DNA of 64,000 bases, from contig CAXXLF010000002.1 in assembly GCA_963664015.2 (NCBI GenBank), positions 1,568,001 through 1,632,000 on the forward strand. The letters are read 5' to 3'. The notes under the pieces were generated by a model. That model was not told the origin of the DNA, ran no database searches, and saw only the letters and a list, made by a program, of their open reading frames with translations. The DNA comes from Candidatus Binatia bacterium. Its GTDB lineage: Bacteria; Desulfobacterota; Binatia; UBA9968; CAXXLF01. The number at the start of each line of letters is the position of its first letter. Position 1 is the first letter of the stretch. Positions 45,430 through 55,863 of the stretch are shown one piece after another. A program made the position numbers and the translations under genes.

Positions 45430-45550
45430 ACCAACCGGCGCCGGTTGATCGCGATCTCATTTCATTGCTATGGTGAGCTCGCGATATGCGCCGCTGACCA
45501 TCGGTTCGCAGCCCCTATGGGAAACCGCAGGGACGAATTCAATCTTACAA

Positions 45551-46606
45551 ATGGAAACCTCCGACACTAAAAACCAGCGTACCGAGCCCATCCCGGCATC
45601 TCAGTGGGAGGACTGGCCTGACGAGAAACTTCTCGACTTGCGACTGTGCGATCTCGATCTTCACATCGAGGGAACCGACGTGGAGAAACAAATCCATCAG
45701 CTCTATAGTGAGCTGGAAGGCAAGGGACTCGGCTTTCGCCCCCACGTCTGGCTTTCCAGTGAATGGTTCAGTCCTGACGGTGTCCCCGGAATTGCCATTC
45801 CCTTTTACATGGCCCACCCGCGGCTAACACGGCTGGAACTGAGCCAGATGTTTGAAGTCGAGGGAGGAACTTCCGATTGGTGCATGCGGATCCTACGCCA
45901 CGAGACAGGACATGCCATTGAAAACGCCTACCAGTTGCGTAGACAACGTCGGCGGCAACAGCTGTTTGGAAAATCATCGGAGGACTATCCGGACTACTAC
46001 ACCCCAAAGCCCTACAGTAAAAGTTTCGTCCTGCATCTCGATTCATGGTATGCTCAGAGCCACCCCGACGAGGACTTTGCGGAGACCTTCGCTATTTGGC
46101 TTCATCCCGAATCCATGTGGCGGGAGCGCTATGCCAATTGGCCCGCGCTCAAGAAACTCGAGTATATGCACAGTCTCATGCAGGAGATCGCTCACCAAGA
46201 ACCCCGGGTAAACTCAAAGAGGCGCGTGGAGCCCATCTCACAGCTGCACAAGACCCTGCGCCGACACTACCGGAACAAACGCGAGCACTACGGGCTGGAA
46301 TACCCACACTTTTACGACCGTGACCTGAGGAGGCTGTTCTCAGCCGCCCCCGAGTACCGCGGCAACATAACAGCGGCTTCCTTTTTAGGACGAATTCGCC
46401 GGGAGGTCAGGCGTAAGGTAGCCAACTGGACCGGTGAATACCAGTACACCATTGATCAGGTCCTCCACGACATGATCGACCGCTCGCGGGAGCTCGAACT
46501 TCGCCTGACAGGCACCGAGGAACAGACGAAACTGGACTTTATGGTGCTCCTGACGATACAGACCATGAACTACCTCCACAGCGGGAGGCATCGAATGGCG
46601 CTATGA
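45551..46606 (+). CDS. Putative zinc-binding metallopeptidase (zincin-like)
   Basis: LRHETGH (HExxH) and YAQSHPDEDFAETFA motifs. Confidence 0.85.
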   Translation: METSDTKNQRTEPIPASQWEDWPDEKLLDLRLCDLDLHIEGTDVEKQIHQLYSELEGKGLGFRPHVWLSSEWFSPDGVPGIAIPFYMAHPRLTRLELSQMFEVEGGTSDWCMRILRHETGHAIENAYQLRRQRRRQQLFGKSSEDYPDYYTPKPYSKSFVLHLDSWYAQSHPDEDFAETFAIWLHPESMWRERYANWPALKKLEYMHSLMQEIAHQEPRVNSKRRVEPISQLHKTLRRHYRNKREHYGLEYPHFYDRDLRRLFSAAPEYRGNITAASFLGRIRREVRRKVANWTGEYQYTIDQVLHDMIDRSRELELRLTGTEEQTKLDFMVLLTIQTMNYLHSGRHRMAL

Positions 46607-47628
46607 AAAAGCTCCGCGTCATGGTGTTGATGCACGAGGACCTGGTGCCTCCTGACGATGCTGCTGGAGTGGATCTGACCACGGTAGAGTGGAAGACCGA
46701 GTACAACGTGGTGTCGACGCTGCGCCGTATTGGGCACGAGGTGCTGCCCGTTGGGGTCCGCAGCGATCTGGAAACCATTCACAAGACCGTCAACGAGTGG
46801 AAACCCCACATCGCCTTTAATCTTCTCGAAGAGTTCGATGGGGTCGCCGTTTACGATCAAAACGTAATCGGGTATCTGGAGCTGCTGGGCCTTCCCTATA
46901 CGGGTTGCAACCCCAGGGGTCTGATGCTTGCTCGAGACAAGGGTTTGTCCAAACAGATCTTGACCTACCACCGGATTCTGTGTCCCGAGTTCGCCTTTTT
47001 CCCCATGGGGCGGCAGGTCAGGAGAAACAAGCGCCTTGAGTATCCCCTCATCGTAAAGTCCGTATCCCAGGAGGCATCTCTAGGTATTTCCCAGGCCTCT
47101 ATCGTTGACGACGATGACAAACTGCGCGAGCGGGTGGCCTTCATTCATAACAGCATCGGCACCGACGCCATCGCTGAGCGCTATATCGAGGGACGGGAAC
47201 TCTACGTGGGGGTGATGGGAAATATGCGGTTGCGGGTGTTTCCCGTTTGGGAGCTTATATTCGGTGAAAAACTTCCCGACGAAGTACGCCCCATCGCCAC
47301 CGCACGGGTAAAATGGAACTTCAAATATCAGGAAAAATACGACATCTATTCGGGACCAGCCGAAAATCTCCCCAACGGGATAACGGAAAAGATCCAACAT
47401 GTGGCCAAACGCATATACCGCGCCCTGCACTTGAGCGGGTATGCCCGGATCGATCTGCGCATGGATAAGGATGGCAGGTTCTATGTCCTGGAAGCCAATC
47501 CGAACCCTGAAGTCGCCTTTGGCGAGGATTTCGCCGAGTCAGCCCATCAAGACGGTATCCCCTATGAGGACCTACTGCAGCGGATTCTTAATCTGGGCCG
47601 CCAATGGGTCCCCGACCGGCTCGGTTAA
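46603..47628 (+). CDS. ATP-grasp ligase (D-Ala-D-Ala ligase-like)
   Basis: PYTGC, DK, IVK...ASLGIS, ERYIEGRE, GYARIDLR and LEANPNP; ATGA overlap with the peptidase stop. Confidence 0.88.
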   Translation: MKKLRVMVLMHEDLVPPDDAAGVDLTTVEWKTEYNVVSTLRRIGHEVLPVGVRSDLETIHKTVNEWKPHIAFNLLEEFDGVAVYDQNVIGYLELLGLPYTGCNPRGLMLARDKGLSKQILTYHRILCPEFAFFPMGRQVRRNKRLEYPLIVKSVSQEASLGISQASIVDDDDKLRERVAFIHNSIGTDAIAERYIEGRELYVGVMGNMRLRVFPVWELIFGEKLPDEVRPIATARVKWNFKYQEKYDIYSGPAENLPNGITEKIQHVAKRIYRALHLSGYARIDLRMDKDGRFYVLEANPNPEVAFGEDFAESAHQDGIPYEDLLQRILNLGRQWVPDRLG

Positions 47629-47758: not shown

Positions 47759-48895
47759 ATGCTTGTTAAGATGGCTCAAGGAGCCACCCCCGAACAGATA
47801 GTAGCCGTGGAGAAGAAACTCCACGAATGGGGCTATAAAACCGGCAAGATGGAGGGTGAGGAGATCACCTTGATCGGGGCCTATGGGGATATCACCCAAC
47901 TTCCGCAAGGGGAACTTCGGGAGATGGGCGGCGTTGAAAGGCTGATTCCGATCTCACGCTCCTACAAGCGGGCCGCCCAGAAGGGTTCCCCGGGAAATCC
48001 CATCTACCGAACCGTCACCATCGGAAACCTAGACGTCGGTGGCGATGACCTGACCGTAGTGGCCGGCCCATGCTCCGTGGAAAGCGAATCCCAGGTGATG
48101 GAAGCGGCCCGTATCGTTAAAGAGTCCGGGGCCCAGGCCCTTAGAGGTGGAGTTGTCAAATACCGTTCGAGCCCTTACAGCGGATGGGAAGGGATTGGTT
48201 CGACCTCAGGGGAAGCGTTACGCAACGGTTTGAAACTCATCGCACAAGCGGGCAGGGAATTTGGCCTCCCGACGGTAGTTGAGGTACTCGACCCAGCCGA
48301 CGTCTCGATCTACGAAGATATGGGAATCGATTGCATCCAGGTCGGTGAACCCAACTCGAAGAACCAGGCGCTGCTTAACCGGCTGCGCGAGACGCCCCTC
48401 CCGGTAATCCACAAACGAGGCAACTCACTGGATATCGAGGCTTATCTGCTCTGGGTGGAGCGAATCATGGCTACGGGCAAAGAGAATGTCATTCTCTGTG
48501 AACGCGGCGTCTTCAGCGCTAACAAATACACCCGCAACACACTGGACCTTGGCGGCATCGCCGCCCTACGCCACCAGCTTTCGTGCCTCCCCGTCGGAGT
48601 GGACGCCTCCCACGGTACCGGCATACGGGACCTGGTTCATTCCATGACCCTGGCCGGTATCATGGCGGGAGCTTCCCTTGTGCTGATCGAGGCCCATCCC
48701 AACCCGCTCATTGCTAAATCCGACGGTTTTCAGGGTCTGTTCCCCGAGCAGCTATTGCACCTGGTTAACGCCTGCAAAGAGGTTTGGAAGCTCCGCACGC
48801 GGATCGATTCGCTTTACGTACCAAGCGCAAAACTAGAGCATGAATACGAGGCTCGGATCCCAAGCGATAAAAAACGATTCTTCGGCGCAGCGTAA
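47759..48895 (+). CDS. Type I-beta DAHP synthase-like protein with N-terminal ACT-like domain, divergent
   Basis: AGPCSVE, LRGG, KRG, LCERG, RNTLD, DASH, EAHP and SDG retained; KPRT is KYRS and GARN is GEPN. Confidence 0.8.
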   Translation: MLVKMAQGATPEQIVAVEKKLHEWGYKTGKMEGEEITLIGAYGDITQLPQGELREMGGVERLIPISRSYKRAAQKGSPGNPIYRTVTIGNLDVGGDDLTVVAGPCSVESESQVMEAARIVKESGAQALRGGVVKYRSSPYSGWEGIGSTSGEALRNGLKLIAQAGREFGLPTVVEVLDPADVSIYEDMGIDCIQVGEPNSKNQALLNRLRETPLPVIHKRGNSLDIEAYLLWVERIMATGKENVILCERGVFSANKYTRNTLDLGGIAALRHQLSCLPVGVDASHGTGIRDLVHSMTLAGIMAGASLVLIEAHPNPLIAKSDGFQGLFPEQLLHLVNACKEVWKLRTRIDSLYVPSAKLEHEYEARIPSDKKRFFGAA

Positions 48896-48906
48896 ACGCC
48901 CTTCTT

Positions 48907-49173
48907 TTGAACCGGCGGCCCCGAGCCGTCCATGGAGCAGACGCTTCATTGGTATTAGCGGGGATCACCCATGCCCGGGGTGTGGACCTCTTTATTTGCG
49001 AGTGCACCTTCTTCGATGGGGAAGACCCCAGCCATATGACCTACCAGCAGATTAGAGACAAGCTGCCGCACCTGGAGAGCAAGAAAATCGTCCTGACCCA
49101 CATGGGTCGAGAGATGCTGGCTCACAGAAACGACATCCCATTGGAAACGGCCAAAGACGGCATGGTGGTGTAG
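48907..49173 (+). pseudogene. C-terminal remnant of an MBL-fold (RNase Z-like) hydrolase
   Basis: DLFICECTF...SH...KIVLTHMG...AKDG; the N-terminal HxHxDH part is absent. Confidence 0.65.
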
Positions 49174-49246
49174 TTCTAAACGATCGTGCTAGCATCTTTG
49201 GCATCCCCTGTTACAGGAAACATCGGGTGGAACTCGTGGAGGCCTC

Positions 49247-50140
49247 ATGGAAATAATCAAAGCTAGTTTTCAGGACGTTAAGGGAATTCCGCCCAGCGGG
49301 CTGTGCGTCGGAGTGCATCGGGCAGGGGCCATTCATACAAATATGCTAAAAAAATACGGTGACGGCATCACGGTCTGGTCCCTCAGGCCCCACCTGGACT
49401 TTGTCGCCTTTAAAAAGGAGGGATTGGGGGAAAAGGGGATCCGGGCCACCAGCGACATGGAGTCCATAGAGGGGGAGAAGCTCATCTATGGGGTGCGCGG
49501 AGCTCCTCCGGAGATTCGCCGCAAGGCCGAGGAACGAGGGCTCCAGTTGCTCGCAGACGCCACCTGCCCCTTCGTACTGGAGCAGGAGAAGGCCGAGGTG
49601 GAGTTACTGCAGCAGGGTTTCAACCTGGTGGTTCTTAGCAGCCGCACCCATCACGGGATCCCGCGTCTCGAGGGGATCGCACGGGATGCGGGACGAGAGG
49701 TCTTCGTCGTAGAAAAGGAAAAAGACGTGGATCAGATCCACCTCACCCGCTTCGAGCCAATCGGCGTTATCGTTCAGACAACCTTCTGGATGGAGTCCTA
49801 CAAGACCATCATGGCGCGCATCCTCGACCGCTTTTCCAACGTACGGATCAGGAATACAGCTTGTATCGACTCTTACCAGCGTCTCCCTGAGGTGGAGAAA
49901 CTGGCCAAGCAGGTGGATGCCGTTGTTGTGGTGGGGTGGACCGAGGGGATGACGACACGAATGGTCGAGGTGGCAAGAGCCTTCAACCCCAGTGTCTATA
50001 AGCTGGAGAACGTGGATCATCTCCAAGCCGATTGGTTCTATGGAAAAGAAAAAGTGGGGGTAATCGGGGCCAATGAGACCCCCGACTGGATGGTGGATGA
50101 GGTCATAGAGCGGATAAAATCACTTGGCGAAATCGTTTGA
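49247..50140 (+). CDS. IspH/LytB-fold Fe-S protein, divergent
   Basis: GLCVGV, DATCPFV, QTT, NTAC and TPDW retained; several active-site residues changed. Confidence 0.8.
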   Translation: MEIIKASFQDVKGIPPSGLCVGVHRAGAIHTNMLKKYGDGITVWSLRPHLDFVAFKKEGLGEKGIRATSDMESIEGEKLIYGVRGAPPEIRRKAEERGLQLLADATCPFVLEQEKAEVELLQQGFNLVVLSSRTHHGIPRLEGIARDAGREVFVVEKEKDVDQIHLTRFEPIGVIVQTTFWMESYKTIMARILDRFSNVRIRNTACIDSYQRLPEVEKLAKQVDAVVVVGWTEGMTTRMVEVARAFNPSVYKLENVDHLQADWFYGKEKVGVIGANETPDWMVDEVIERIKSLGEIV

Positions 50141-50206
50141 AATGCTCGGTTAAATTTTGGATTACGGAATAAAGAAAAAAATGACTCGCGCGTAAGAATT
50201 CAGTCT

Positions 50207-50488
50207 ATGCCGAATATTACCTTCATGCCTTCCGGTCAAAGTTTCGAGGTTGAAATGGGAACCACCATTCTCGCTGCCGCTATTCACAACGGTCTTCACC
50301 TGCCGCACGACTGTACCGAGGCGATTTGCGGGACCGACCGGGTCAAGGTCCTGGCCGGTGCCGAGAACCTGAGTGAAAAGAGCGACAACGAAGACCTGAC
50401 ACTGAGCATGTTAAATGCCGATTCAGAGGACCGCCTTGGCTGCGTGGCGCAGATCCTTGGTGAGGTCACCGTTCAAATCCCTTCATAA
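50207..50488 (+). CDS. 2Fe-2S ferredoxin with C-x4-C-x2-D motif
   Basis: TILAAA...HDCTEAICGTDRV...RLGC. Confidence 0.85.
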   Translation: MPNITFMPSGQSFEVEMGTTILAAAIHNGLHLPHDCTEAICGTDRVKVLAGAENLSEKSDNEDLTLSMLNADSEDRLGCVAQILGEVTVQIPS

Positions 50489-50660
50489 TTTGCCACTGGA
50501 TTCGGGTCTTCCACCCCAACGAAGCCCCCCGCGCCATATCACCACTTGAGGCCTACTGTGGAATTTAGAACAGGATGCTTTTGTTACAGCCAACGACGCT
50601 TGCCCCCTCTGATTAGAGCGACACGGCAGCATAACGACGAGACTTTCAATGTTTATTTTT

Positions 50661-52010
50661 TTATTTCGGGACCTGCCGGAAATAATCCTGGGACGCCTCC
50701 ATAACGCGTGGCGATAACAGCAACGCCGCCATCATCGTTGGCAGCGCCATGAAGGCAAAGCCGGTATCGAGCAAATTGACAACACTCTCGGTGGTACAGA
50801 GGGCACCCAGCACAATCATGGCACAATAAAAATAATTGTAGAAATGGCCGTGCCCCCAACCCACGAGATACGAGAAACACTTGCGACCATAATAGGAGTA
50901 TTCCACCATCGTGGAAACCGCAAAGAGGACCACAGACAATACGATCAGGAGCCGACCCAGGCCGCCCATGGCGGATTCGAAGGCCTGAGACGTTAGGTCG
51001 ACGCCCCGAACACCCAAGCCCTGCCAGTTGCCCTCCACCAGCACCACGAGCGAAGTCATTGTACAAATCACGATGGTGTCGATAAAGGGACCATTCATTG
51101 CCACGAGACCTTCACGCACGGGCGGGCGGGTTTTGGCCGCACCATGGGCGAGCGCAGCCGTCCCGATACCCGCCTCGTTGGAGAAGGCTGCCCGTTTGAC
51201 GCCTGTGGCTATGACTTTGGAAACGGCAATCCCCGTCGCCCCACCGGCGGCGGTTCCGCTTAAGGCATCATGAAAGATCATGGCGAACAGACCCGGGATC
51301 TCCTCCAGATGTGTTCCGAGTATATAAAGACAGGCGAGAATATAGACTCCGCACATCAGGGGCACGATGCGGCTCGTGACTCTTCCTATGCGTTGAATCC
51401 CACCCATAATCACGCCGCCAACGATCAGCATCCCGCCCACTCCGGTCCAGCCCCGGCTCAATCCGTAGGAACTCTCCAGAACCTCTGCCAATTGATTGGC
51501 CTGAAAAAGAGTCAGGCAACCCACCAGCCCGCAAACGGAAAACAAAAATTGCCAGGAGCCGAAAGAGCCGCCCCAGACCTGCCTCGATAAAATACATGGG
51601 CCCGCCTTGATCCACTCCGTACTCGTCCCTCAACCGGTACATACAGGCAAGGGTGCAGGTGAAGAACCTGGTGGCCATGCCCACCGTTGTAGAAACCCAC
51701 ATCCAGAACACGGCTCCCGGCCCCCCCCTGGGTGATGGCTACCGCTACGCCGGCAATATTACCCATCCCGACAGTTGAGGAAAGAGCCGTAGAGAGCGCC
51801 TGGAAATGCGCAATCTCACCGGGATCGTTTGGATCATCCCATTTACCGCACAAGATTTGCCAGGAATGACGAGCGTAACGAAACAGTGTAAAGCGGGAGT
51901 AAAGGGTAAGAAACAACCCGCCGCCAATCACGAGAACGATCAGTGGCCATCCCCATGCGTAGCCGACGGCTACGAACAAGAAACGATCAACAGTGGAAAG
52001 CCAGGTGTCA
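50661..52010 (-). pseudogene. Alanine/glycine:cation symporter (AGCS), frameshifted
   Basis: FQALSTALSSTVGMGNIAGVA, GGPMYFI, FSNEAGIG and FIDTIVICTMT spread over three frames. Confidence 0.85.
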
Positions 52011-52455: not shown

Positions 52456-55175
52456 ATGCGATTCAATATTCAAGCCATTTTGCTGCTTCTTGTGGTAGCC
52501 TGCACCCCGGCATGTCAAACTGTACGCTTAACCCAGGGACGTACCAATATTCCTTCGGGTCAGCTGGCCAAGACCGTCATCCCCACTCACTACGATCTGG
52601 CACTCACCGTCTTCCCGGATCAAGAGCGCTTTCAGGGCCGCGTTGCGATTGACGTTGAAATTCGGGAACCGACCACACTCATTTGGCTCCATGGCTATGG
52701 TTTGAATGTCACTACCGCCTCGCTGGCGCTGGCCAACGGACGAAAACTGGTTGGTGGTTATAAGCAGATCAATGACGACGGTGTCGCACAGGTGCAGCTC
52801 CCCGAGCGGGTCGAGCCCCAACACGCCCGTTTGTTGTTCGAATATGACGCACCTCTTATAACAACCGACCTGGAGGGGCTATACCGCGTTCAGCAAGGGA
52901 AGGACTGGTACGCTTTCACTCAATTCGAAGCCATCGCAGCCCGCCATTGCTTTGTCTCCTTCGATGAGCCGGCCTTCAAGGCGACCTTTGCAGTATCCTT
53001 AACGGTTCGGGCTGAGCACAGGGCCCTGGCCAATACGCCGCAGGTGGGAGAGGAGCGTCTCACGGGGAATACCAAGAGGGTGCAATTCCCCACTACAAAG
53101 AAAATCCCAACTTATCTGGTAGCGCTTGCGGTGGGCCCCCTCGACGTGGTGGAGGCTGAGCCTATACCCCTTAACTCCGTCAGGCAGGTTCCGGTGCCAC
53201 TGCGAGGAATTGCGGCTCGCGGCCAGGGCACCCGCCTGGCATACGCACTTAAGCACACCGGTCGCCTGCTGAAGATTCTAGAGGAATACGTCGGCATTGC
53301 CTATCCTTTTCAAAAGCTTGACATTGTCGCCGTGCCGAAATTCGGCGGCGGAGCCATGGGAAACGTGGGTCTCATCACGTTCAGAGATCGAATACTCATG
53401 GTCGACGAGGTGACGGCTTCGGTCAATCAGAAGCAACCCTTCGCCTACTATATGGCTCATGAACTTGCCCACCAGTGGTTCGGTAATCCGGTCACCATGC
53501 CATGGTGGGACGATCTTTGGCTCAACGAAGCTTTCGCAACGTGGTTGGAATATCGAGTCGTTGAAGCCTTCGACCCGAGCACCAAGGCTAGGGTGGGTCA
53601 ACTGAAAGACATCCTCGAGACGATGGATGAGGACAGCTTGCTTTCTACACGCGAGATCCGCCAGCCGATTGTCACCGCCCACGACATCGACAACGCTTTC
53701 GATGGAATCACGTATAGCAAAGGTGGTGGCGTCATCTCGATGTTCGAGCGTTTCCTTGGCGCGGAGCAGTTTCAAAAAGGGGTCCGCCATTACTTGAATA
53801 AGTTTAGCTATCAAGTGGCCGACACAGAACAGTTTCTCGCGGCCCTATCCTCTGGATCGGGAAAGGATATCAGCGACTCCTTTCGGACATTTTTAGTTCA
53901 ACCGGGTGTCCCCCTCGTGGAGTTTCAACCAAGTTGTAACAACGGCACCGCTAGCGTGTTGCTGCGCCAATCACGCTATATCCCCTTCGGATCCAATGCC
54001 CCGTCGGATCGAATTTGGCAAGTACTGTCTGCCTCCGCTATGGGATAGGGGGTGAGGCCTTCGAGACCGGCGAACTCATCGGAGCACAAGAGACTGTCAT
54101 GCAGGTATCTACTAGCGGTTGCCCCGACTGGGTCCTGCCAAACGCCGACGGCGCTGGATACTATCGCTGGACCCTGCCCGCAGAAGAGCTACGCCGTTTG
54201 AACGCCACTGCAAAGGATTCCCTATCAACTCGCGAGCTCTTGTCGGTGGGAGACAGCCTCTGGGCAGACTTTACAAAGGGCACGGTTTCAGCGGCTACGG
54301 CTTTAGAGCTGGCACCCTGGGTTGCCCAACACCCCGAGCGGGAGGTGGCGACAGTACCGATGGAGCTCGTCCGGTTTACGCGCAACCGCTTGGTCCGTAA
54401 GGGCCAACGGCGCAGCGTCGAGAGGTTCGCGAATGAACTGTACGATGACGCGTTGAAACGGTTAGGGGTAACTCCGAAAGCCGGCGAACCCAACCAGTCC
54501 CGCTTGTTCCGGAGGGATCTGCTGGCGTTCCTTGCACGCGTCGGCCGACACCCTGAGGTGCGTCGAGCACTGGCGCGGTCGGGGTGCGCCTATATCGGTT
54601 ACAAAACAGACGGATTGATTCACCCGGAGGCAGTCGATGCAGATCTGGTCCCTTTGGCCCTCGGTGTTGCAGTCCAAGAAGGTGATGCCGAATTTCTTGA
54701 TGCTATGGTCAAGCATCTTAAAGACAGCGAGACCGATTCCGTGGTTCGCAGGCATCTACGCGCCGGCCTGGTACAGGCGACTGAACCAGAGCTCGCCGAG
54801 CGAGTACGAAACCTGATCTTGAGCGGTAGCGGCCGTACCCATCAAAAGGTTCGGTTGCTACGGCGTCATTTACGGTTGAGCGAAAATCATGCATCGGGAC
54901 TCCAGTGGTTGCGTGAGAATCTGGAGAAGCTCCTGACCAAGATTCCATCGGACCACGGGGGCTCTTTGGTTTGGGTCACGGCCTCTTTTTGTAGTTCAGA
55001 CGAGGCGGTTTTGGTTCAACAGCTGTTTGGACCCAGTATTAACACGCGGCCAGGCGGGCCCCGCGACCTGGCTGCCACATTGGAAACCATCAACCAGTGC
55101 GCGGCGCTGCGGCGGGCGCAGCAGGCGAGCGCCCGAGCCTTTTTTAATCAACGGCCTACGGCCCAGTTCAAATAG
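52456..55175 (+). pseudogene. pepN: M1 family aminopeptidase N with ERAP1-like C-terminal domain, frameshifted
   Basis: TQFE, FDEP, HELAHQWFG...WLNE and YSKG; GAMEN reads GAMGN; a 1-nt deletion near 54025 splits the gene (a sequencing error cannot be excluded). Confidence 0.8.
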
Positions 55176-55216: not shown

Positions 55217-55863
55217 ATGGAGAGCCAACAGTTCGTACACGAGCTTCTGGATACGGTGAACGGATTCTGCCGATCACTGGATACTCGACCTCCTGCATAC
55301 AGCTATATTCCCCTGAAAACGGACGAAGAGCGGGTTCGAGTCATGAAGAGTCGTTTATTCAACGAGCTCCGAGCATCGGACCTCTACGGGACCTGGCTCA
55401 AGACAACACGTGAGTTTGAAGTCAAGGCCTTGATGGCAAAGTCGGCCCACGAGGAAACGGTCCATGCGGATCTCCTGGCCGCTCGGATTCCCAAACTCGG
55501 GCATGACCCTTCGATTACCGCCCGCTTCCCGCACAGACGGCGATGTTCAACGCCCTGGAGGGGCTCATGGATACCTGCCAGCGTATTGCGAGGTTTTCCC
55601 TGGCAGGGGAAGCCGTTGCGACCTACCTGACTCAAATGAGTCTTCAGGAGGCGTCGGCACCCGAATGGATCAAGCAGCCCTATAGGCGGATTACCGACGA
55701 TGAGGAGAGTCACGGGAGTGTTCCCCAGGATATTCTAAAACATTATGCGACGGCGTCGGAATCGCAGAATGCGGCGCGCCGGGCGGTGGCTATGCGTCTC
55801 GTCCTCTTTCGTGAGTATCTCTCAAGCCTCGACCGGTGGGCAACGGGGAAATCCCCATGGTAG
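55217..55863 (+). pseudogene. Ferritin-like four-helix protein, frameshifted
   Basis: NELRA, HEETVH, GE and DEESH di-iron-type motifs; apparent 1-nt deletion near 55510. Confidence 0.7.

Follow-up and report, generated by a model that had tools for sequence, protein, structure and literature searches.

A conserved IspH-fold paralogue with rebuilt pocket residues and a linked ferredoxin in UbiD-rich Binatia

To our knowledge, IspH has been treated as a single-function enzyme, and its organometallic mechanism has been studied mainly as a drug target. Whether the IspH scaffold also serves other chemistry is the question raised by a 64,000-nucleotide stretch of a Candidatus Binatia bacterium genome (contig CAXXLF010000002.1, positions 1,568,001 to 1,632,000; hereafter the window), in which an IspH/LytB-fold gene, here called IspHL, is followed by a ferredoxin gene (Table 1). 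A sequence-only reading of this locus had proposed that an IspH-fold Fe-S enzyme has been repurposed here and is accompanied by a ferredoxin of its own, and this proposal was strengthened by the presence of a canonical ispH in the same genome, the conservation of the pocket changes, the separate clade that IspHL forms and the ferredoxin linkage.

Table 1. Annotated features at the IspHL locus (coordinates of the window)
Feature	Position	Strand	Basis
Type I-beta DAHP synthase with N-terminal FXD domain; context, outside the module	47759..48895	+	
MBL-fold (RNase Z / cyclic-nucleotide phosphodiesterase-like) C-terminal remnant, 88 aa; context, outside the module	48907..49173	+	
Shine-Dalgarno-like GGAGG, 4 nt 5′ of the IspHL ATG	49238..49242	+	sequence reading
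IspHL, IspH/LytB-fold paralogue, 297 aa	49247..50140	+	ORF, PF02401, AF2/Foldseek, conservation in 91 sequences
[2Fe-2S]-type ferredoxin, beta-grasp Fer2 domain, 93 aa	50207..50488	+	PF00111, conservation, synteny, co-distribution

An IspH-fold paralogue with rebuilt pocket residues

The IspHL open reading frame has no internal stop and, as had been claimed from the letters, is intact behind a good ribosome-binding site. Pfam LYTB (PF02401) matched residues 16-291 of 297 with 161.6 bits (cut-off 24.5), and all eight NCBIfam IspH models that hit scored under their cut-offs (8/8), such as TIGR00216 (140.7 versus 187.85) and NF002187 (151.6 versus 276), so that IspHL is claimed by no NCBIfam model. 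The AF2 model reached a pLDDT of 94.5, and its best Foldseek matches were the IspH structures 3ke8 and 3f7t (substrate-bound E. coli IspH, TM 0.84). With canonical IspH it shares the three-domain fold, 24-28% identity, the three Cys ligands and the Q-T-T by the apical iron, and ferredoxin-driven chemistry at an open Fe site is probably shared as well. JGI pipelines label IspHL-type proteins HMBPP reductase; this label is probably wrong, and proteins so mislabelled would inflate MEP-pathway calls.

Residues were mapped by a hand count along the HMMER alignment to the E. coli IspH chains (chain numbering minus 8). C12, C96 and C197 of E. coli IspH thereby correspond to C20, C107 and C206 of IspHL, and Q166-T167-T168, of which T167 fixes the hydroxyl of the substrate on the apical iron, to Q177-T178-T179, so that the retention of the cluster cysteines and of QTT reported in the sequence-only reading was borne out. 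Among 91 family sequences, C20 is kept in 90 and C107, C206 and the QTT triad in all 91.

The substrate pocket has been rebuilt. In E. coli IspH, H41, H74, H124, S225, N227 and S269 bind the diphosphate and E126 delivers a proton, the E126Q/D/A mutants being almost inactive, as described in the passages of PMC8837944 that deal with these residues. Unlike canonical IspH, IspHL has R84 for H74 (SAHG to GVRG), G234 for S225, a gap for S226, M235 for N227 (WTEG-M) and E277 for S269 (GANETP), in agreement with the motif changes first noticed by eye (SAHG to GVRG, SSN to TEGM, GAS to GANE). The H41 position is D in 84, E in six and H in one of the 91 sequences, the single His being H49 of the window's IspHL and private to this genome. 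For the proton donor, H121-A-G-H124-P-E126 aligned without gaps to H135-H-G-I138-P-R140, namely that HPE reads IPR; a MAFFT alignment likewise set the E126 position on R140, while the A. aeolicus alignment set it on G137. The Glu is absent in either register, with R140 and G137 both invariant, and thus the loss of the catalytic Glu, as had been read, stood, but the proposed register (HPE to HHG) did not. IspHL also differs from canonical IspH by a three-residue insertion near H124, and the H124 position itself is ambiguous, falling on I138 or possibly, if the insertion is placed otherwise, on H135.

These replacements are family features. The exchanges at H74, E126, S225/N227 and S269 are fixed in 91/91 homologues, and R84, R140, H135, H136, W231-T-E-G-M235 and N276-E277-T278 are invariant in all of them; because each substitution is invariant throughout, chance can be set aside as their origin. 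Further family-specific invariant segments are S45-L-R47-P48, Q113-E114 and F180-W181, and G137 and P139 extend the invariant stretches to H135-H136-G137 and P139-R140. IspHL has thereby gained three invariant arginines, R47, R84 and R140, whose placement in the pocket is putative and follows the alignment, and which leave room for an anionic, even phosphorylated, substrate. The non-diphosphate substrate and the reductase or hydratase activity put forward in the sequence-only reading are candidate properties. The sequence-only reading had named substitutions private to this genome and a dN/dS near 1 as what would count against it; instead, the substitutions were family-wide (91/91) and dN/dS was about 0.05 (median 0.050, range 0.014-0.22, computed over those 1707 of the 4095 pairs whose dS fell within 0.05-1.5), i.e. 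purifying selection. A quick tree split 15 IspHL-type rows from 47 canonical IspH rows with an SH-aLRT of 99. IspHL is a second, strongly conserved IspH copy with a rebuilt substrate pocket and an unusual small ferredoxin of its own, and most likely catalyses a reaction different from the usual final step in making isoprenoid precursors.

A second LytB-family gene in one genome is also seen in M. tuberculosis, whose LytB1 and LytB2 presumably keep the IspH active-site residues and stay HMBPP reductases, whereas IspHL does not keep these residues. The two M. tuberculosis homologues have been described in the MEP pathway (PMC4550268, in the part concerned with them). IspH-RPS1 and IspH-UbiA, found by sequence-network analysis, are fusions built on an IspH domain that is conventional in other respects; IspHL, in contrast, stands alone with a changed pocket, and the passages of PMC4746011 that treat these fusions describe no such clade. 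Neither was a description of an IspHL-like clade found in the literature searched, to which subscription journals did not belong.

A conserved ferredoxin partner with an aspartate in the ligand set

The ferredoxin that the sequence-only reading saw behind IspHL is a Fer2 ORF lying directly downstream. It matched PF00111 with 42.1 bits (cut-off 21), and its profile E-values were 3e-12 and 7e-12 for E. coli Fdx (1I7H) and ‘Ferredoxin-4’ (9I2A), respectively; the NCBIfam ferredoxin or ferredoxin-domain models matching it, 12/12, were all under their curated cut-offs. Its ligand pattern is C36-x4-C41-x2-D44 ... C79, in which D44 takes the place of the expected third Cys and aligns with the third Cys of the solved ferredoxins 9i2a and 6icm, so the four-Cys set C-x4/5-C-x2-C ... 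C is absent. All four residues are invariant in 61/61 ferredoxin sequences, and H34 is nearly so. The protein thus shares the beta-grasp Fer2 domain and the C-x4-C-G-T-x ... C spacing with plant/adrenodoxin-type [2Fe-2S] ferredoxins but differs from them by the Asp as third ligand in every member. A Cys3-Asp [2Fe-2S] site occurs in SdhB of E. coli succinate dehydrogenase.

The ferredoxin gene directly follows IspHL in 79/91 loci, the median distance between the two being 3 nt, and four of the 12 loci lacking it have less than 70 nt of downstream sequence. In the window the spacer is 66 nt and no clear ferredoxin ribosome-binding site was seen, compared with usually 2-4 nt elsewhere. A second lineage, of low GC content, has the pair as well (G001, G624). 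Among 121 genomes of the same order, all of the 52 ferredoxin-positive genomes also carry IspHL and no ferredoxin was found without it; and in family f100, where hundreds of kb to 1.5 Mb separate the two genes, both are kept in 26/28 genomes, although this co-distribution rests on few independent events, as adjacent genes move together trivially and f100 is a single genus. In a complex prediction of IspHL with the ferredoxin and both clusters, the score was 0.01 against a mark of 0.32, and the tool returned no verdict.

Distribution and gene neighbourhood

The search for a canonical ispH that the sequence-only reading had suggested was positive: the window's genome (G000) encodes one with 327.8 bits (TIGR00216 cut-off 187.85), and 54 of the 58 IspHL-positive genomes do so at E<=1e-70. 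In the remaining four carriers, ispH was split over two frames in two, a contig-edge fragment in one and absent in one. IspHL is therefore an additional gene and not a replacement of canonical ispH. Its distribution is patchy, with carriers in 58/121 genomes of the order, 0/174 in the rest of the class and 2/78 in a second order.

Beyond the ferredoxin, the neighbourhoods are of at least seven different kinds, and the ferredoxin is the only conserved partner. The neighbours that could be named are mostly catabolic, including VOC and bicupin dioxygenases, a Rieske dioxygenase, TauD hydroxylases, UbiD, enoyl-CoA hydratase, family III CoA-transferase, ALDH, GST, nitroreductase and an IclR regulator; given how many catabolic genes these genomes carry, their proximity is weak evidence, and as the neighbourhoods vary, context says little about the IspHL substrate.

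The suggestion of a pathway shared with the DAHP-like gene found no support, since this synteny is confined to the window and five of the 91 loci (L003, L004, L023, L024 and L026), all in one subclade, and the DAHP synthase, slightly under its NCBIfam cut-offs (306 versus 335 bits), was rejected as a partner. Within this subclade an MBL-fold gene, full-length (246 aa) in the same five loci, lies between it and IspHL. The MBL-fold gene was likewise rejected as a partner, because it adjoins IspHL only in this subclade and is a remnant in the window; in L105 an MBL-fold gene adjoins the ferredoxin.

A protein atlas search with IspHL returned generic LytB clusters only. A metagenome scan recovered close relatives only (72-85% identity) and not the distant members P0124, P0128, P0138 and P0142, and a search with P0128 itself gave seven relatives, one of which is labelled Thermodesulfobacteriota. 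In the marine metatranscriptome run X12, a 268-nt contig was identical to 49492-49758, at most a weak hint that IspHL is transcribed, as RNA libraries can contain DNA and the contigs carry no strand. A promoter and terminator scan of 48800-50750 yielded no promoter-like site and three terminator-like sites versus 2.3 expected.

Possible reaction and competing explanations

Taking fold, residues and linkage together, we consider IspHL to be probably a [4Fe-4S] enzyme that has been neofunctionalised, depends on ferredoxin and acts on an anionic substrate different from HMBPP. It would bind a [4Fe-4S] cluster with an open fourth iron site, no longer use HMBPP, receive electrons from the putatively co-transcribed [2Fe-2S]-type ferredoxin with its putative Cys3-Asp ligation, and then perform an IspH-like two-electron reaction, in which, most likely, an allylic or benzylic hydroxyl bound by the apical iron and T178 is reductively removed. 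R47, R84 and R140 together with H135/H136 would hold the substrate anchor in place of the His/Ser/Asn diphosphate cradle, and a new acid would stand in for E126, with the invariant E114, E233 or E277 as candidates. The likely setting would be the oxidative and decarboxylative organic-acid catabolism that dominates the UbiD-rich genomes.

More specifically, and tentatively, IspHL could be the first enzyme of the IspH family whose substrate is not HMBPP, a ferredoxin-driven organometallic reductive dehydroxylase with a Cys3-Asp [2Fe-2S] partner that acts on an allylic or benzylic alcohol on a carboxylate, CoA thioester or monophosphate rather than a diphosphate. Targets of this sort would be a 4-hydroxy-3-methylbut-2-enoyl or 4-hydroxymethyl-aryl acid, or a hydroxy-prenyl monophosphate that feeds DMAP to UbiX. 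If so, IspH chemistry would reach beyond isoprenoid biosynthesis and into the catabolism of the UbiD-rich Binatia. A conserved paralogue with a kept cluster site, an exchanged cradle and its own atypical ferredoxin would mean that the IspH scaffold is reused for other chemistry, and would give a handle on an unassigned reaction of the Binatia, an uncultured lineage that is widespread in soil and marine settings.

It is unlikely, though the best placed of the alternatives, that IspHL is a non-redox hydro-lyase, in which the fourth iron, as a Lewis acid, promotes hydration or dehydration and the ferredoxin only keeps up or restores the redox state of the cluster, much as in aconitase-type enzymes, in quinolinate synthase and when IspH works, as a side activity, as an acetylene hydratase. 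The quinolinate synthase NadA and Dph2 have site-differentiated [4Fe-4S] clusters whose unique iron binds the substrate, and both show a weak fold resemblance to IspHL (5f35, prob 0.93, TM 0.31; 6q2e, prob 0.75), but at the sequence level no relationship emerged, and their TM-scores fall far below that of IspH. The lost proton-relay Glu would fit an altered chemistry, and IspH hydrates acetylenes to aldehydes or ketones, as reported in the relevant part of PMC8837944. However, the dedicated ferredoxin, which is mostly translationally coupled and is kept even when unlinked, is explained more easily by a stoichiometric supply of electrons.

IspHL might instead still be an HMBPP reductase, an isozyme with its own ferredoxin for particular conditions, whose Arg and His residues bind the diphosphate differently. 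IspH needs ferredoxin or flavodoxin as electron donor, the fold, the cluster ligands and T167/QTT are the same, and the cationic R47, R84, R140, H135 and H136 could still bind a diphosphate. What makes the isozyme improbable is that E126 has become R140 or G137 in every member, whereas E126Q, E126D and E126A almost abolish activity in E. coli IspH (PMC8837944, same passages); that S225, N227 and S269 have each been exchanged, in two cases for a bulky or acidic residue; and that the protein lies below all curated IspH cut-offs, is patchily distributed and coexists with canonical ispH in nearly all carriers.

No better supported is a role in prFMN/UbiD chemistry, whereby IspHL would supply a monophosphate prenyl donor such as DMAP, which UbiX uses, or act on a UbiD substrate or product. 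A monophosphate would fit a protein that has lost the diphosphate cradle, and every lineage in which IspHL was found has 20-70 UbiD decarboxylase genes: UbiD matches numbered 52, 38, 38 and 28 in G000, G001, G002 and G003, first-look candidates numbered 26-72 in the 27/27 genomes that represent the order in the class sample, against 1-3 matches in 4/174 genomes outside it, and at least 20 matches were found in 70/78 genomes of the second IspHL-carrying order. The link is weakened by the many UbiD-rich genomes that lack IspHL (63/121 of the order and 76/78 of the second order), and a general supply of prFMN is thereby excluded as its role. A UbiD gene immediately adjoins IspHL in two arrangements only (L006-L011 and L012), which is no rare coincidence where a genome has 30-50 UbiD genes; the identity between the two adjoining UbiDs is just 30%, and G624, the closest relative of L012, has none beside IspHL. 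The f100 UbiD was rejected as a partner, as it has no orthologue in G000 (best match 47%), where UbiX lies ∼337 kb from IspHL. In the literature found, no paper linked IspH with prFMN, and none joined UbiD with Binatota or Binatia.

Finally, that IspHL is not an enzyme but a redox or iron sensor, regulator or cluster carrier on the IspH scaffold is very improbable: a cluster switch role has been hypothesised for the IspH-RPS1 fusions (PMC4746011, in the passages on these fusions), but no DNA-binding or signalling domain accompanies the LYTB domain, which spans nearly the whole protein, and invariant polar and charged residues occupy the IspH substrate-binding positions, as would be anticipated of a catalyst.

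A divergent IspH copy with an exchanged pocket

The IspH-like protein of the window (IspHL) is a real, conserved and selectively maintained IspH variant with a dedicated, atypical ferredoxin (Fdx). To this extent the sequence-only reading, which proposed a repurposed IspH-fold enzyme with its own ferredoxin, held, while the possible pathway that it suggested with a nearby DAHP synthase gene (DAHPS) was not supported. The gene is intact and preceded by a ribosome-binding site as had been stated, with GGAGG 4 nt before the ATG. Residues 16-291 matched Pfam LYTB (PF02401) with 161.6 bits, and all eight matching NCBIfam IspH models scored under their curated cut-offs, e.g. TIGR00216 (140.7 bits, cut-off 187.85) and NF002187 (151.6 bits, cut-off 276). 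The nearest solved structures are the IspHs of A. aeolicus (E 1.4e-36) and E. coli (E about 7e-22), and the AlphaFold2 model based on a 101-row alignment (mean pLDDT 94.5) was aligned with E. coli IspH by Foldseek at a TM score of 0.84 and an rmsd of 2.8-2.9 Å. A canonical ispH, for which a search had been suggested, was found by whole-genome search in the window's own genome (G000; 3.5 Mb, two contigs) with 327.8 bits, which makes IspHL a second copy, and a divergent one.

Features in the window and in other genomic contexts (window positions unless a contig is given)
Feature	Position	Strand	Description
IspHL	49247-50140	+	297 codons, uninterrupted
Fdx	50207-50488	+	93 aa, Fer2 domain
Peptidase_Mx and ATP-grasp genes	45470-47628		putative zinc metallopeptidase overlapping a D-Ala-D-Ala-ligase-like gene by 4 nt
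MBL-fold remnant	48907-49173		RNase Z/cyclic-nucleotide phosphodiesterase-like; C-terminal 88 aa only, beginning 12 nt past the DAHPS stop
Divergence of X6 contigs	48964-48974		seawater run
X12 contig	49492-49758		268 nt, identical, inside IspHL
Split gene	50661-51979	-	Na+/alanine symporter, two overlapping frames
Split gene	52456-55175	+	M1 aminopeptidase, two overlapping frames
Putative split gene	55217-55863	+	ferritin-like ORF pair, two overlapping frames
Split gene	G000 C1:886910-887628		second DAHPS, two overlapping frames
Canonical ispH	G000 C2:824734-825570
UbiD-family gene	G000 C2:723677-724264		example
UbiD-family gene	G000 C2:725195-725785		example
L104	G002/G527 C1:472008-474776		two ferredoxin copies, 2.5 kb apart

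Residues were mapped by counting along the HMMER alignment to the E. coli IspH chains (chain number minus 8). The cluster cysteines C12, C96 and C197 (C20, C107 and C206 in IspHL) and Q166-T167-T168 (Q177-T178-T179) are retained, and the substitutions noticed earlier in the substrate cradle were confirmed, namely H74 to R84, S225 to G234, S226 to a gap, N227 to M235 and S269 to E277. According to the review PMC8837944, the diphosphate pocket of IspH comprises H41, H74, H124, S225, S269, T168, N227 and Q166, T167 stabilises the hydroxyl on the apical iron, and the E126Q/D/A mutants are nearly inactive and H124A/F have very low activity. The earlier view that HPE had become HHG with loss of the catalytic glutamate was right on the loss and off by three positions in register: H121-A-G-H124-P-E126 aligns without gaps to H135-H-G-I138-P-R140, with arginine at the glutamate position, and no glutamate was found there in any register (E. 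coli, A. aeolicus or MAFFT). Because a three-residue insertion near H124 is placed otherwise by the A. aeolicus alignment and by MAFFT, H135 may correspond structurally to H124. The window's H49 aligns with H41 but is private, this position being D in 84, E in 6 and H in one of 91 family sequences.

Conservation and distribution

Across 91 IspHL loci (11 from genomes, 80 from metagenomes), S45-L-R47-P48, R84, C107, Q113, H135, H136, G137, R140, Q177-T178-T179, F180-W181, C206, W231-T-E-G-M235 and N276-E277-T278 are invariant, and C20 and E114 are each kept in 90. The substitutions R84, R140, M235 and E277 are family-wide, rather than private changes with dN/dS near 1, the pattern named earlier as speaking against the proposal: the median dN/dS was 0.050 (range 0.014-0.22; Nei-Gojobori, 1707 of 4095 pairs with dS 0.05-1.5), and 0.076 between the window and its closest locus, L023.

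Homologues at E<=0.001 numbered 584, the best 120 of them 70-100% identical; those that NCBI names are called hypothetical protein and assigned to Candidatus Binatia or 'Deltaproteobacteria' MAGs, and JGI calls them HMBPP reductase. Few full-length clusters of a 50%-identity library lie between this family and ordinary IspH, i.e. P0103 (74%), P0124 (45%), P0128 (39%) and P0138 (38%), beyond which identity is at most 35%. A quick maximum-likelihood tree split 15 IspHL-type rows (Binatia, L012 of a second lineage, P0124, P0128, P0138 and P0142) from 47 canonical rows including G000's own IspH, with an SH-aLRT of 99. P0138 sits on a long branch; in protein alignment A1 its first cluster cysteine is absent (NPVYVYF where others have GLCVGV), and it may bind the [4Fe-4S] cluster differently. 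Among sequencing runs, one marine metatranscriptome (X12) yielded a contig within IspHL, runs from two coded host-labelled organisms contained near-identical DNA contigs of the whole locus, and seawater metagenomes contained more divergent ones.

Presence was scored at E<=1e-60 for IspHL, 1e-25 for Fdx and 1e-70 for canonical ispH. IspHL was found in G000 only among 301 genomes drawn evenly from the phylum, in 15 of 201 class genomes, all within the 27 of G000's order (0/174 elsewhere), and in 58 of 121 order genomes, i.e. three of four in family f1 plus G000, 28/28 in f100 and 26/88 in f2; these order counts include the unpublished G538 and G543, both positive for IspHL and Fdx. A second order, around G001, has it in two of 78 genomes (G001 and G624). 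IspHL does not replace IspH: canonical ispH was detected in 104 of the 121 order genomes, the one count here that takes in the likewise unpublished G571, and in 54 of the 58 carriers; in the other four it is split over two frames (G541, G535), a contig-edge fragment (G557) or was not found (G569).

The dedicated ferredoxin

The ferredoxin read after IspHL in the window recurs, by tblastn, just 3' of it in 79 of 91 loci, with a gap of 2-18 nt in 75 of the 79 (median 3 nt). Twelve loci are without it: six (L006-L011) have a UbiD gene instead, four have <70 nt downstream or a cut gene, and L100 and L101 showed no Fdx within >3.6 kb downstream, PIN-domain genes following IspHL in L101. C36, C41, D44 and C79 are invariant in 61/61 sequences, all with the motif C-x4-C-G-T-D. 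Since profile alignments with the solved ferredoxins 9i2a and 6icm put D44 precisely where C-x4-C-G-T-C has its third cysteine, a Cys3-Asp [2Fe-2S] site is predicted. E. coli SdhB is a natural precedent for such ligation. A nearly invariant histidine lies two residues N-terminal of the first cysteine in these 61 sequences.

Fdx was detected in 52 of the 121 order genomes, 52/52 also carrying IspHL, and never without it; 63 have neither gene, and six (G415, G514, G521, G540, G569, G586), drafts of 100-790 contigs and 66-96% completeness, have IspHL alone. In such counts related genomes are non-independent and adjacent genes are trivially lost together. Two facts are informative. The single genus that makes up f100 keeps both genes in 26/28 genomes although they are unlinked there (G323 has them at 2.98 Mb and 1.44 Mb), and the pairing is conserved in a second lineage, formed by G624 and by G001, whose locus L012 (53% identity) is labelled uncultured Rhodospirillaceae. 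At L104, in one f100 genome, two IspHL-type ferredoxin copies adjoin a PEP-mutase/isocitrate-lyase-family gene and a YkuD transpeptidase gene.

Candidate reaction and gene neighbourhoods

The sequence alignment places an invariant arginine in each of the three segments that bear the cradle histidines of IspH, namely R47 (H41 loop), R84 (H74) and R140 (E126), and new invariant acids appear at E114 (90/91), E233 and E277. The substrate would be anionic and anchored otherwise than HMBPP, with an oxygen function on the fourth iron of the cluster, and the reaction would use a new proton donor and electrons from the dedicated ferredoxin. The most parsimonious guess would be reductive dehydroxylation, with a hydro-lyase reaction as the main alternative. 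A 2015 sequence-network study of 15,660 IspHs describes, in its accessible part, phylum clusters and fusions only (PMC4746011). Full-text searches, which took in few subscription journals, turned up no account of an IspH clade whose pocket has been exchanged, no link between IspH and prFMN, the cofactor of UbiD decarboxylases, and no paper treating UbiD together with Binatota or Binatia; earlier work may exist.

The ferredoxin alone is the conserved neighbour of IspHL. Among the other arrangements, a GST lies upstream in 25 loci, the ferredoxin is followed by an ornithine cyclodeaminase/mu-crystallin in 16, a 4Fe-4S dicluster-domain protein of 300 aa occurs in 12 and the order IclR-IspHL-Fdx-bicupin in 7-8; G624 has TauD, TauD, MFS(-), IspHL, Fdx and a family III CoA-transferase. 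Two arrangements include UbiD, namely VOC-dioxygenase-like gene-IspHL-UbiD-SLOG-AI-2E transporter in L006-L011, and ALDH(-), enoyl-CoA hydratase, UbiD, IspHL, Fdx and Rieske dioxygenase(-) in L012.

A minor rival reading would tie IspHL to the UbiD/prFMN system, which doubles as an ecological context of organic or aromatic acid catabolism. UbiD-family genes are massively expanded in two whole orders: G000 has 52 PF01977 matches in its 3.5 Mb with one UbiX, G001, G002 and G003 have 38, 38 and 28, all 27 order genomes of the class sample hold 26-72 first-look candidates versus 1-3 matches in 4/174 outside, and UbiD occurs in 78/78 genomes of G001's order, with at least 20 matches in 70. IspHL was found only in these UbiD-rich lineages and adjoins UbiD in the two arrangements, but it is absent from 63/121 and 76/78 genomes of these orders, the two adjacent UbiDs are just 30% identical, and the f100 one has no orthologue in G000 (best match 47%).

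DAHPS was seen in one arrangement only, NUDIX-rhomboid-peptidase-ATP-grasp-DAHPS-MBL-IspHL-Fdx (window, L003 with an additional purU-like gene, L004, L023, L024, L026), so the proposed link is confined to one subclade. The gene is divergent as claimed, slightly sub-threshold at 306 versus 335 bits. A second I-beta DAHPS, more canonical than this one and split over two frames (178 + 149 aa), is also encoded in G000, as is a KDO8P synthase. In the other five loci the peptidase and ATP-grasp pair is likewise 5' of DAHPS, and the MBL-fold gene encodes 246 aa; the X6 contigs part from the window within its remnant, which suggests a strain-specific deletion. Unlike IspHL and Fdx, several genes are split, either as real pseudogenes or by indel errors of long-read assembly: besides the second DAHPS these are a Na+/alanine symporter (294 + 155 aa), an M1 aminopeptidase (530 aa with the M1 domains + 386 aa with ERAP1_C) and, putatively, a ferritin-like ORF pair (137 + 106 aa), of which the first ORF matches Ferritin weakly and under threshold and the other shows no match.
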